A stretch of 64,000 bases of DNA from a virus, in the IMG/VR virus record IMGVR_UViG_3300048587_000705, positions 34,643-98,642 of that record. One strand, written 5' to 3'. Position numbers and translations under genes: made by a program. Positions within the stretch are counted from its first letter, which is position 1. Each line of letters opens with the position of its first letter. Positions 32,460-59,777 of this stretch are shown here, piece by piece. The notes below the pieces were generated by a model. That model saw nothing but the letters and a program-made list of their open reading frames with translations. It was not told the origin of the DNA and made no database searches.

Positions 32460-32929
32460 TATTTGCCCGTTTTTAGTTTTTTTAGCAAGGTGTAGTATAT
32501 CTTAGGTTTTTTTCTGTCGTACTGCAACATGTTGTACAGGCATTTTTTTGCGTATTTTGAAAATGACCTGTCCATAGACATATACCTTATGCAACTGTTC
32601 TTTGTAGCATCGGTAAACATCTGCAATGTGTATATCTTGTCGTTGACAAATGTTTTGTTGTGGTGCAATGTATCCTTGTCACGTATGTACTTTACCTCTA
32701 CCGCTGCCAAGTATCCATACTCATCGAGCCAAAGACCCCCTTCATGATCACAAGCTACTTCCGACATTGCCCTGAAAATCTCGCACACTGCTTCCTTGAA
32801 TCGCGTCCTGTGTTCTCCTATGGGATTATCCGTCTTTCTGTGGCGCCTGTAAAAAAAATACGCTGTCTGGTCGTGGGGGAAGAGATGCCCTGTCGTACGT
32901 CTTTTAGAGCTCAATTTTTTATCGCTCAT
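32459..32929 (-). CDS. IHF/HU-like protein
   Basis: Helix then G.L.L..YG.L strand pattern; same position as the IHF-like gene between tail genes in crAss-like phages. Confidence 0.45.
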   Translation of the reverse strand: MSDKKLSSKRRTTGHLFPHDQTAYFFYRRHRKTDNPIGEHRTRFKEAVCEIFRAMSEVACDHEGGLWLDEYGYLAAVEVKYIRDKDTLHHNKTFVNDKIYTLQMFTDATKNSCIRYMSMDRSFSKYAKKCLYNMLQYDRKKPKIYYTLLKKLKTGK

Positions 32930-33600
32930 GTGTTCTCATTGTTGTTTGGGTTGTTGTCGGTCGGTATCTGCATGTAGCTCCCCAAAAGTTCCTTTAATGT
33001 CTCCTGCACCACCAATTCCTGTAGCTTGTCACTCCCTACAAACTCCATGTCCAACGGGGATATGCACTCATCACATTTCTCGCACGATGCTTTTTTTGCA
33101 CCCATTCTATCAAGTGTCAATGGTTGCACGTTCACTACCTCTATATATCTATCCACTATGTAAAGATGTCCGTCCTCCCTTACATAATAATATGGTTTGT
33201 TGTTGTTAGGTTTTCTTTTTCTGTCGTTTATATATTTTAGGGGGGTGGTCCTGTCTATCTTTTCAGAATCATCCACGTTGGATACAAGCCTTATTGAATC
33301 ACCATATCTTGAAAAGATAAGTTCTGGAAGTTTTTCCTTGGATTTCATAATAATGCTGCACCTTTTGAACTCTACTATAGGGCAATCTACGGAACGTATC
33401 TGTTCCATCTCAAGACATGGTATGTCGGTAAAGATATTCTCCTCCCTGTACAATGTCATGTCAGAGAGCTTTTGCGCCAAAAAGAACTTCATTTTCTCTC
33501 GGGCAATATGGAGTACGTACCTTCTGGACATAAACCTGTCCTTAGACTTTCTGCGCAGGGCGTTCAATAACCTGTCCGCCAATTTACCTTCTGTAGCCAT
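32926..33600 (-). CDS. Tail ring/adaptor protein
   Basis: 224 aa, KSKEKLPELI...YYYVREDGHLYI...P.DN.PN; gene order. Confidence 0.65.
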   Translation of the reverse strand: MATEGKLADRLLNALRRKSKDRFMSRRYVLHIAREKMKFFLAQKLSDMTLYREENIFTDIPCLEMEQIRSVDCPIVEFKRCSIIMKSKEKLPELIFSRYGDSIRLVSNVDDSEKIDRTTPLKYINDRKRKPNNNKPYYYVREDGHLYIVDRYIEVVNVQPLTLDRMGAKKASCEKCDECISPLDMEFVGSDKLQELVVQETLKELLGSYMQIPTDNNPNNNENT

Positions 33601-33614
33601 AATGTTGCAAATAT

Positions 33615-33750
33615 AGTTATAAATTTTAATGATAAATAATATTCATTTTAATTCTCAACGCTTCTACGAAATTAGCCTCCATTTCACATCGCTGTGAACT
33701 TTTGGTCTTACTATCTCTCCACGTTTATAATCCGCATTAACTCCTACGGT
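33615..33750 (-). ncRNA. Putative cis omegaRNA scaffold of the TnpB; guide about 33595-33614
   Basis: Overlaps the tnpB 3' end. Hairpin CCGUA/UGCGG whose loop AGUUA complements the terminal UAACU (pseudoknot); ACGUGGAG...GUAAGAC...GAAGCGU core. Confidence 0.7.
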
Positions 33751-34827
33751 TTTTCTTTTTATTGTTTTGGAAGCGTTCAAATCTCTGTCCATTTTTATGT
33801 TACCACATCCTGTACATACAAATTCCCTGTCTGATAATTTCACATGTTGTATATTTTCACACTCGTGGCACTCTTTTGTTGATGGCTCAAAAGTACCTAA
33901 AAGAACCACATCTTTATTGTAACCAAATTTTTGCTTGTAGCTTATAAAAGTTTTAAGTTTAGACATTGACGTATCAGATATTGATTTTGACATTGTTTTG
34001 GATGTTAGCATTCTGGTTATATCCAAATTTTCCATTCCTATTTCGTTATAGTTATCAACTATATACCTACTTATGTTGTGTAGATGCCACTCTCTCTGAT
34101 TTTTTATTTTTTTGTGTACTTTGGCAACTTTTAATTTTTGCTTCTTATATCTGTTACTTCCTTTTTTCTTTCGACTTAAATGTCGTTGTGCCCTTTTTAG
34201 TTCTGCGTGGTTCTTGTCAAAACATCTTGGGTTATCAAATTGTAATCCATCACTTAATGTTACAAGTGATGAAACACCTAAATCTATACCTACATTGGGT
34301 TTTTGTTTTTTATTTTCATAGTTTGTTTTCTCTATTTCAAATGATATTGATACATAATAGTCGCCACAAGACTCTTTTGATATCGTGGCTCTTAAAAGAT
34401 AGGCATCTTTGGGTATATTCCTATCTTTTTTAAACTTAACTTTACCAATTTTTTCAAGTTGTATTGTATTTCCCTTTATTTTAAATTTTTGATTGGGGAG
34501 TCTATAGGTTTGCCTTGAATATTTATTTTTATATTTGGGTGCGCCTATTAATTTCTTACGTTTATTGTTAAAGAATTGTGTTTTAGTTTGTTGAAAGTCT
34601 CTTATTTTTTGTTGTAGTGCTGCTTGACTTACCTCCCCTATCCACTCAAACTCTTGTTTTAGTTCTTTTGGAGTTCTGTAAATAGGTTTAGGAAGATTTT
34701 CTTTATGATAGCTTTTAAATACATCTACGTAGTGATTCCATATAAATCTTACACAACCAAAGGTTTTAGAAAATAACTCTTGTTGTGTTTTATTGGGATT
34801 TAATTTATATTTAAAAGATAATACCAC
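33664..34827 (-). CDS. tnpB: TnpB RNA-guided endonuclease (IS200/IS605 superfamily), no TnpA in the window
   Basis: HTH FKYKLNPNKTQ..FGCVRFIWN; RuvC-I GIDLG, RuvC-II MENL, zinc finger CHEC...CTGC, RuvC-III DRDLNAS, all intact. AT-rich relative to flanks. Confidence 0.95.
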   Translation of the reverse strand: MVLSFKYKLNPNKTQQELFSKTFGCVRFIWNHYVDVFKSYHKENLPKPIYRTPKELKQEFEWIGEVSQAALQQKIRDFQQTKTQFFNNKRKKLIGAPKYKNKYSRQTYRLPNQKFKIKGNTIQLEKIGKVKFKKDRNIPKDAYLLRATISKESCGDYYVSISFEIEKTNYENKKQKPNVGIDLGVSSLVTLSDGLQFDNPRCFDKNHAELKRAQRHLSRKKKGSNRYKKQKLKVAKVHKKIKNQREWHLHNISRYIVDNYNEIGMENLDITRMLTSKTMSKSISDTSMSKLKTFISYKQKFGYNKDVVLLGTFEPSTKECHECENIQHVKLSDREFVCTGCGNIKMDRDLNASKTIKRKTVGVNADYKRGEIVRPKVHSDVKWRLIS

Positions 34828-34848
34828 TTAAAAATTATTTATTTTCAA

Positions 34849-34888
34849 CAAATATACGTTTATTATTTGTCCTGTACAAAAATGTCAA
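34849..34888 (-). promoter_or_regulatory. Bacteroidota -33/-7 promoter with upstream TTGACA
   Basis: TTGACA-TT-TTTG-N20-TATATTTG. Confidence 0.75.
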
Positions 34889-34893
34889 TTTTT

Positions 34894-34928
34894 AAACAAG
34901 AAAAGGGAAGAGGTCTATCCTCTTCCCT
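34894..34928 (-). terminator. Intrinsic terminator
   Basis: GGGAAGAGG-ATAGA-CCTCTTCCC followed by TTTTCTTGTTT. Confidence 0.8.
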
Positions 34929-34966
34929 CCCTTTCAAAGAGGAAAACCAAAAACCCCTTTTTGTTC

Positions 34967-36508
34967 TTATATCACTATGTCCACAAACCAAGTCGTGTTG
35001 TCCACGTTGTCCGAGTTTGTGTTAAGGAAAAGGCTTCCCGTTGTGAGGGCGGACGTCGCGGCAGATCTGTTGGCGTACCTTGAGAGTGTAGCTATGTTCC
35101 TGCCTCCTATAAGGTTGGAAGTGGAGACCGTGTTGGCGTTGGTAAGGTCTGCGGAGACCACCCCGCCGCCAGTATCGTTGGCAAGCCTCCCCCCTGAGAA
35201 TATATTGTACCTGAAATATATCCCCGTCCATATACCAGATGCCGTGTTGAAGATATTGGTCAGCGGTATGGAATTGGTCGTGGACGTATATTGGCATATC
35301 ACCGTTGGGTTGTTCGTGCCATACCTGTAAAAAAAGTTGGTTATGGTATCGGGAAACAAAAGACTGCATTTGTCAAGTGTGAGGGTGCATCCAAAAGATG
35401 TCTCTTTTTCAAGGGTAAAGCAGTTTGTCCTTTCCGTGCCGTTTATATAGAACTCACAATTGGTGCACGTTATATTCCCCCCAACTTGGTCAAAGGACTC
35501 CGATGCTATGTTTATAGTAGAACCTTTATAAGAGTGCCTTATCTTACAGTTGGTAAATATGGTCTCGGATTCCCTCCCCATGTTCCAAAAATCCTTTTCC
35601 ACAGACACCAGTTCCGTGCCCTCCACTATAAAATTTTGGAAAGCGGGCATCCCATACCCAGAGGCATTCGAATAGTTGGACTCAAACAATGTGTACCCCG
35701 ATGCCCTTGCGCCGCTGAGTTGTATTTTTCCTGAGCCGTTTATCTTTATAATATTTAACTGTTCCGCTCCACCAGTACTTCCTATGTTCCTAAACCCTTT
35801 TTGGTTAAGTGTCAGTACCGCACCCTCTTTAACGGTTAGGTTGAGCGTCGATTTTATGTTGGTCAAAGTATCATAATCGACAAACCAAGATCCTGTTGAC
35901 GGTGTATGGTTTACGACTGCCCCTTCTTCCAATATTACGTTAAGGTTCCTGTAAGAGAGGTTTCCAGTGAAGGTATAGGTATTTCCTTTTTGTACTATAA
36001 TGGTGGCGTTCTGGTTCTCGGGCGCATCGGCGGTACCGTTACCAACAAAAGCCGTAATGGCGTTCGCAATGGTCTTGAAGGGTTTTCCCAATGTACCGAG
36101 TTCCTCCGAGCCAGTATAAAGGTTGTTCACTATATATTGTTCTATACCTAAGTCTGAAATCTCTATGGTTATGTTGTCGCCTACCGTAGATATATTCAAA
36201 CTGTCCGATTTTAGAGTCCTGAACTGTCTTATTCCACTAGGGGAGATACCTTTGTACACCTCTGCCTCGCCTCCTACGTTCTGTATGACAAAACTACCTG
36301 CGCTCTGTATAAGGTCAAGCAGTTCGCACAGGTACTCATCAATAGCGGTAAGTGCATCCTGTAATGTACCACCACGTGCAAAATCGACACACTCAAGGTC
36401 TATGTTCAGGGTAACGCACTCTGTCCCTGTCTTTATTGCGCAGCCGCAGGAAGATTTTGTTTTGCACCCGCAGTTGGGCACAGTATTGTTACATTTATTA
36501 CATCCCAT
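34967..36508 (-). CDS. Tail spike/fibre with Cys-rich N-terminus and probable beta-helix
   Basis: MGCNKCNN...CVTL; GT..KPFKTIANAI motif that typically opens pectin-lyase-like beta-helices. Confidence 0.65.
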   Translation of the reverse strand: MGCNKCNNTVPNCGCKTKSSCGCAIKTGTECVTLNIDLECVDFARGGTLQDALTAIDEYLCELLDLIQSAGSFVIQNVGGEAEVYKGISPSGIRQFRTLKSDSLNISTVGDNITIEISDLGIEQYIVNNLYTGSEELGTLGKPFKTIANAITAFVGNGTADAPENQNATIIVQKGNTYTFTGNLSYRNLNVILEEGAVVNHTPSTGSWFVDYDTLTNIKSTLNLTVKEGAVLTLNQKGFRNIGSTGGAEQLNIIKINGSGKIQLSGARASGYTLFESNYSNASGYGMPAFQNFIVEGTELVSVEKDFWNMGRESETIFTNCKIRHSYKGSTINIASESFDQVGGNITCTNCEFYINGTERTNCFTLEKETSFGCTLTLDKCSLLFPDTITNFFYRYGTNNPTVICQYTSTTNSIPLTNIFNTASGIWTGIYFRYNIFSGGRLANDTGGGVVSADLTNANTVSTSNLIGGRNIATLSRYANRSAATSALTTGSLFLNTNSDNVDNTTWFVDIVI

Positions 36509-59449: not shown

Positions 59450-59680
59450 CTACTGTGTAAAAAGTTCTGTTTCTGCCGTTTCTTTTGTCTTTGCGCTCTC
59501 TATGGCGTTCAATATCTGCTCGTTGGTGAGTTCTTTTACGTCCGATAGTTTTCCCGTGCCGTTCTCGAAAGTCGCTATCCTCAGAAAACTGAAAAGGATT
59601 TCACCCAACGTATATTCTGGGTATTCACCTATCAATGCCTTTATCTCGTTTATCGCGGCGATTTTATGTGTACTGCTCAA
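59450..59680 (-). CDS. Hypothetical protein; TTG start supplied by the 99-bp element
   Basis: 76 aa, YPEYTLGEILFS. Confidence 0.65.
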   Translation of the reverse strand: MSSTHKIAAINEIKALIGEYPEYTLGEILFSFLRIATFENGTGKLSDVKELTNEQILNAIESAKTKETAETELFTQ

Positions 59681-59777
59681 AATTGTATGTATTAAGTTGA
59701 TAATATTTACTTACTGCTTCACTGGATGCCCATTGGCGCGTCCTCCACAGTCACTTCGGGTATTTTTAGCCCTGTTT
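59679..59777 (-). mobile_element. 99-bp protein-less omegaRNA-like element, copy 2
   Basis: Near-identical to 45605-45703; fills almost the whole intergenic space. Confidence 0.7.

Follow-up and report, generated by a model that had tools for sequence, protein, structure and literature searches.

A transposase-less TnpB element in the promoter of a crAss-like phage tail ring gene and its probable affinity to IS607

The occurrence of a tnpB gene directly upstream of a tail ring protein gene in a phage genome raises the question of what kind of element it belongs to, how that element came to occupy a promoter and what might maintain it there. Cas12 descends from TnpB elements, the persistence of which in the compact genomes of lytic phages is, to our knowledge, poorly documented. 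The locus lies in a stretch of 64,000 nucleotides (the window), which belongs to an IMG/VR virus record of 98.6 kb with an estimated completeness of 65%. The host of the element is a crAss-like phage, and crAss-type tail ring proteins 1 and 2 are encoded in the window, as judged by Pfam.

All features of the locus are on the minus strand. In the direction of transcription, a 513-aa structural gene (34967-36508), which has neither Pfam nor PHROG matches and whose N-terminus is homologous to the gene preceding ring 2 in relatives, is followed by its intrinsic terminator hairpin (34901-34931), then by a TTTG (34877-34880) that, on comparison with relatives, corresponds to the -33 element of the ancestral ring-2 promoter and, 20 nt further on, by a -7 box reading TATATTTG (34849-34856). 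After another 21 nt comes the GTG start of a 387-aa open reading frame, tnpB (33664-34827), the stop codon of which is separated by 48 nt from a second TATATTTG (33608-33615), which stands 7 nt before the ATG, at 33600, of the gene for tail ring protein 2 (32926-33600; 224 aa; Pfam CrAss_Ring_2, E 1e-26). It had been predicted that the same box occurs on both sides of tnpB, at 34856-34849 and 33615-33608, and a reading of the minus strand confirmed this. The GC content is about 30% between the two boxes as against about 42% outside them. When measured against the Bacteroidota-type promoter (-33 TTTG, a spacer of some 19-21 nt and -7 TAnnTTTG), the left copy is complete, with its 20-nt spacer, and is now upstream of tnpB, whereas the right copy is a -7 box only, with no -33 TTTG upstream of it. 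A terminator scan found no terminator between tnpB and ring 2. The 8-nt repeat alone is not remarkable here, TATATTTG being present 15 times in the window against an expectation of four, and several chance repeats of 9-11 nt being found within the same AT-rich 1.9 kb; its weight comes from its location at the borders of the element and from the comparison with relatives.

An alignment of ring-2 homologues from 13 crAss-like loci (38-51% identity) provided that comparison for the site of insertion. TnpB was upstream of ring 2 in none of the 13, and in these loci a TAnnTTTG is followed 4-29 nt on by the ring-2 ATG, the distance shrinking to 4-5 nt in five of them, with a hairpin in most cases and a -33-type TTTG in many. 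Most of them have a conserved stretch resembling GGTTTTTGGTTTTCC ahead of the terminator hairpin, TTTGCAA is found in several, as it is in the right copy in the window, and a homologue of the 513-aa gene is kept in four. The terminator hairpin of the window belongs to this shared ancestral intergenic layout. The suggestion that collapsing the two boxes into one would yield a complete promoter before the ring-2 ATG agrees with the layout of all 13 TnpB-free relatives, and the predicted empty site, ...GTATATTTGCAAC..., is well supported by these alignments; it comes out identical whatever crossover register is chosen within the 8 nt. An exact search for the 28-mer spanning the predicted empty site gave no hit in IMG/VR, from which records very close to the window may have been withheld, a DNA search of the 4.2-kb region against GenBank phages gave no match and neither ring 2 nor TnpB found anything when used in a single-sequence scan of IMG/VR. 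Ring-2 homologues of 75-81% identity do occur in public assemblies. In five of the 13 relatives (L087-L099), as in the window, the -7 box is only 4-7 nt from the ring-2 ATG, which implies leaderless or near-leaderless mRNAs.

The protein itself has the features of an intact TnpB. Pfam identified HTH_OrfB_IS605, OrfB_IS605 and Cas12f1-like_TNB domains (E 8e-14, 3e-27 and 3e-11), in the order HTH/WED, RuvC (OrfB_IS605) and zinc ribbon that is found in TnpB. The RuvC triad and the zinc finger are intact: residues D182, E266 and D349, together with C320, C323, C338 and C341, show no variation among 12 relatives and align with the motifs of ISDra2-type TnpB. The start codon is GTG, and ATG in the relatives. 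No match to Resolvase or to the Y1 transposase (PF01797) was found in the 98.6-kb record, so that the original description of an intact RuvC D/E/D site with no accompanying tnpA was upheld. Its description of the TnpB as "solo" needs one qualification, a second TnpB being encoded elsewhere in the record. This second open frame, at G000:C1:28696-29751 and outside the window, encodes 378 aa and its product is 33% identical to the first. The phage carries several unrelated TnpB elements as well as mini-elements.

As to the origin of the element, a protein search found relatives of the TnpB at 54-78% identity on metagenomic and viral contigs only, and in a scan of prokaryote species genomes the nearest TnpB was 44% identical, in Methylococcales and Chromatiales MAGs, with no close chromosomal source. 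One relative, L008, whose TnpB is 75% identical, has directly upstream a 189-aa tnpA with Resolvase and HTH domains that overlaps the start of tnpB, and is the closest autonomous relative, while a C-terminal remnant of the serine recombinase is kept in L010, L017, L021-L023, L026 and L046. By virtue of the recombinase in L008 and the remnants in the others, the sequences place the lineage within the IS607 type. Neither this copy nor the record carries the serine-recombinase TnpA that marks IS607 elements. A matching core without inverted repeats or duplication, another property of such elements, is seen in the TAT that this element, L007, L008 and L011 have at each junction, the longer 8-nt identity being accounted for by the ATTTG of the left end. 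The third property, a GG terminus with a G-rich TAM, is replaced by a terminal ACTAT. The Y1 (HUH) TnpA that defines the IS200/IS605 group was not found, and relatives of at least 43% identity carry serine TnpA remnants instead. As far as can be judged from the sequences, the element, non-autonomous and devoid of tnpA, belongs to an AT-ended IS607-type lineage, so far encountered only on phage-like and metagenomic contigs. In L011 (1346-1471), and also in L004, the place of tnpA is taken by a 41-aa ribbon-helix-helix ORF (NikA/CopG-like) starting 9 nt after the left junction, which may encode a small regulator that travels with the element.

The borders of the element, which is taken to extend from 33613 to 34853 (1241 bp, 30% GC), are ambiguous within the shared TAT, and their placement depends on the relatives. 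Among those of 54-78% identity, conservation runs past the tnpB stop codon and through a short hairpin up to ...TTATAACTAT, the flanks beyond being unrelated. Altogether more than 20 relatives end in ACTAT, with divergence starting immediately beyond, and even distant relatives (43-48% identity) retain it. The next base is G in six independent close insertions, giving TAT followed by G, and in four of these six, and additionally in L015 (making five independent cases), the ATG rebuilt in this way opens a real downstream ORF of between 51 and more than 900 aa. In two independent cases, the window and L011/L004, the right end is followed by ATTTG and it is a -7 box that is rebuilt. The latter pair, 58% identical to the element described here, has a TTTG, 20 nt and then TATATTTG on the left, and TATATTTG on both sides, in an unrelated phage locus with a DUF6371 gene on one side and a DUF5906/VapE-like gene on the other; from its sequence it represents another insertion event, independent of the first, into a different promoter box. 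The original prediction, which envisaged a capture of the tail-operon promoter, has to be corrected in this respect: the repeat is best taken as the element's own ends, and not as the outcome of a single capture.

On the left side, the window, L009 and L011 share a TAT followed by ATTTGT with a TTTG of the -33 type exactly 20 nt upstream, the spacers being unrelated, and in L008 the 44 nt that separate tnpA from the neighbouring gene contain a single TAT, which precedes TTTTG, 14 nt before the tnpA ATG. The left end thus appears to start with (A/T)TTTG, which would make a -7 box with a flanking TAT. With a right end in ACTAT and a left end of this kind the termini would be the two halves of a -7 box, and the repeat is probably formed by the element's own ends (right ...TAT, left ATTTG...) meeting a split -7 box, rather than by duplication of a target. 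The left-end assignment is the weakest link in this reading of the borders: it is based on four short junctions and an 18/27 identity to L009, and the left ends of L007 and L005 do not begin with ATTTG. A TATATTTG at about position 175 of L008 was considered as its left junction and rejected, as it is inside the upstream exoribonuclease ORF, and the intergenic 44 nt were taken to contain the junction instead. The value of L009 as proof that ATTTG is borne by the element was likewise weakened, L007 and L009 being mosaics. In this pair (L007:1475-3270 and L009:2022-3640) identity is 83-100% across the 3' halves, the right ends and the right flanks and 51-78% in the 5' halves, and the left flanks are unrelated, which looks like recombination between two different insertions; in L009 an ATT occupies the place expected for the start codon. 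The right end reads CTAT and the left flanks read GTAT in four of six cases, position -4 of the left flank being G in those four, C in L008 and A in L005. The logic is that of published IS607 elements transposed to AT-rich sequence, and the TAM of the clade is probably AT-rich.

The guide RNA can be delimited from the same end. The 51 non-coding nucleotides that lead from the stop codon to the right end are conserved and, together with the overlapping 3' end of tnpB, outline a putative omega RNA scaffold (33613-33763) terminating at the right end, as is usual for TnpB, with compensatory changes in its stems and covariation in a pseudoknot. The last 150 nt before 33613 are predicted to fold into a hairpin with an AGUUA loop, a long-range stem and a terminal hairpin, and four stem pairs show compensatory changes among nine relatives. 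The AGUUA of the loop (33739-33743) would form the pseudoknot with UAACU (33615-33619), after which only the terminal AU (33614-33613) follows. Among 22 relatives the fourth pair of this helix changes from U-A to C-G in two and to A-U in one, the fifth changes from A-U to G-C in three and the helix is extended to 7 bp in three; the pairing of each sequence with its own partner was matched or beaten by only 11 of 10000 shuffles, a figure that is inflated by the relatedness of the sequences. The pairing of AGUUA with UAACU beside the guide, an element of the original prediction, is supported by these compensatory changes. The start of the guide is more likely to be at 33612 than at 33614, 2 nt later than had been supposed, because the conservation of ACTAT extends to its final base and the fixed end dinucleotide of IS607 elements counts as scaffold (10.1101/2023.11.20.567912; PMC10711439). 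Pseudoknots adjoining the guide have been described for the right-end RNAs of IS607 elements (PMC10711439). A guide of 16-20 nt (33593-33612), predicted by analogy with published elements (10.1101/2023.11.20.567912), would comprise the 3' half of the promoter box, the 7-nt spacer and the first ring-2 codons.

Rfam, at gathering and at permissive thresholds, contained no family for the scaffold, RAGATH-18 included, and sequence and covariance-model searches of the genome recovered no copy other than the scaffold itself, so that the mini-elements of the window use other scaffolds, as had been expected. A GC-rich mini-element at 59679-59777 of the window, for example, has no similarity to this scaffold by either approach. 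The covariance model also gave a non-significant match (24.6 bits, E 0.16) at G000:C1:25236-25303.

The overall explanation that we regard as probable is that an AT-ended, tnpA-less IS607-type TnpB element lies in the -7 box of the ring-2 promoter, with both junctions reading TATATTTG and a guide directed at the empty allele, against which it may home. The element would have integrated into the box between TAT and ATTTG, and its right end (...ACTAT) and left end (ATTTG) would then have restored TATATTTG at each junction. The ancestral -33 and -7 elements, now 21 nt upstream of tnpB, would transcribe tnpB, and ring 2 would be expressed by read-through, from the rebuilt -7 box without a -33, or by both. 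Read-through of the right end would also yield an RNA in which a scaffold ending ...UAACUAU is joined to the next 16-20 nt, from 33612 onward, as guide. The target of such a guide adjoins a motif of the left-flank type (...GTAT) only in the TnpB-free allele, so that TnpB could cut the promoter wherever it is uninterrupted in a co-infecting relative, recombination then copying the element in, which would amount to homing or gene drive, as work on IS605 and IS607 elements would suggest, whilst the occupied allele, with CTAT in place of GTAT beside the target, would be spared. Homing against empty alleles is plausible by that analogy, and the mosaic L007/L009 pair shows that elements of this kind recombine between genomes. 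A more far-reaching version, which we put forward tentatively, holds that the ends have evolved as two halves of a -7 box, such that each insertion makes a -7 box for the element's own genes and spares the host signal (a promoter, or the start codon at TAT followed by G), while the guides drive spread between co-infecting phages.

An important consideration is whether the element does anything at all. It may have inserted once, lost its transposase and been kept simply because ring 2 stays expressed, in which case there would be no homing and the boxes would have no further function. The missing tnpA, the GTG start where relatives use ATG and a genome without a second copy of either scaffold or guide target all sit comfortably with such an immobile relic. 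However, the 387-aa frame is fully open with every catalytic and zinc residue in place, the 51 non-coding nucleotides of the scaffold are conserved and the L007/L009 mosaics are what would be expected of elements recombining between genomes; a relic is rather unlikely. Far less probable is it that a transposase of a different type generated the repeat by genuine target-site duplication, or that the repeat is due to mere chance, for which the 15 copies of the box and the chance repeats of 9-11 nt in the same region might be cited: the TAT of the right copy is part of a terminus conserved in more than 20 relatives with differing flanks, nothing beyond TAT is duplicated in the clade's other insertions, none of the inverted repeats listed stands out as terminal at the ends of the element and the pattern on both sides was repeated independently in L011/L004.

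It had also been proposed that TnpB and its guide might bind other promoters, and a TldR-like regulator acting on many -7 boxes would be attractive in so far as TAT plus the first five guide nucleotides constitutes the commonest -7 box and TATATTTGCA is common to three sites. TldR proteins have an inactivated RuvC site, whereas the triad is intact here, and at the other two TATATTTGCA sites the match to the guide ends after 7 nt, with no site elsewhere within two mismatches of the 16-mer. The proposal consequently finds no backing in the genome and regulation of this kind is considered highly improbable.

The element favoured here, inserted in the ring-2 promoter and directed at its empty allele, is not a new system. 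It is a variant on a known kind of selfish element: an AT-ended IS607-type TnpB element with ends that rebuild a split promoter box or start codon. A terminus that regenerates the split signal, whether -7 box or ATG, suggests a route by which TnpB could persist in lytic phages, the cost of insertion being low and a promoter being gained. A clade of the IS607 type in which the end, and probably the TAM as well, is AT-rich would fall outside the G-rich IS607 rule and, if this is true, would widen the known natural range of TAMs. The locus also offers a candidate phage-versus-phage homing system with a defined target that is directly testable.

Of the systems described to date, IS607 elements carrying TnpB, such as the Clostridium botulinum IStron/IS607 and ISXfa1, are the closest parallel, having a serine-recombinase tnpA upstream of tnpB, as in the relative L008, the same short sequence at both junctions, a scaffold ending in a fixed sequence with a pseudoknot just before the guide and a right-end motif one base removed from that of the left flank. 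In published IS607 elements each junction carries the GG dinucleotide at which recombination takes place and in which the scaffold ends, and the TAM abuts the left end, self being told from non-self by one base, TGGG versus TCGG (10.1101/2023.11.20.567912; PMC10711439); known members have GG ends and G-rich TAMs, TGGG and GGG (review PMC13565253). The present clade differs in ending in ACTAT and abutting TAT, and this copy in having no tnpA. The domain order and D/E/D triad are those of ISDra2 TnpB of the IS200/IS605 group, whose guide is likewise drawn from the DNA immediately beyond the right end, but ISDra2 is moved by a Y1 transposase and inserts after TTGAT, whereas the relatives of the present element carry a serine recombinase. 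ISDra2 TnpB was also the best match among natural solved structures (PDB 8exa, 8h1j; E 5e-49 over residues 5-361). TnpB genes are on record in epsilon crAss-like phages and, as here, occur in some crAss-like genomes but not in close relatives (PMC11054128), that report containing no analysis of borders, guide or insertion site. The free-standing homing endonuclease genes of phages, such as Seg and Mob of T4, resemble the present arrangement in that a nuclease gene lies between conserved phage genes and is predicted to cut the allele without it during co-infection, the predicted difference being that here the target is set by an RNA guide and that self and non-self are told apart by the insertion itself.
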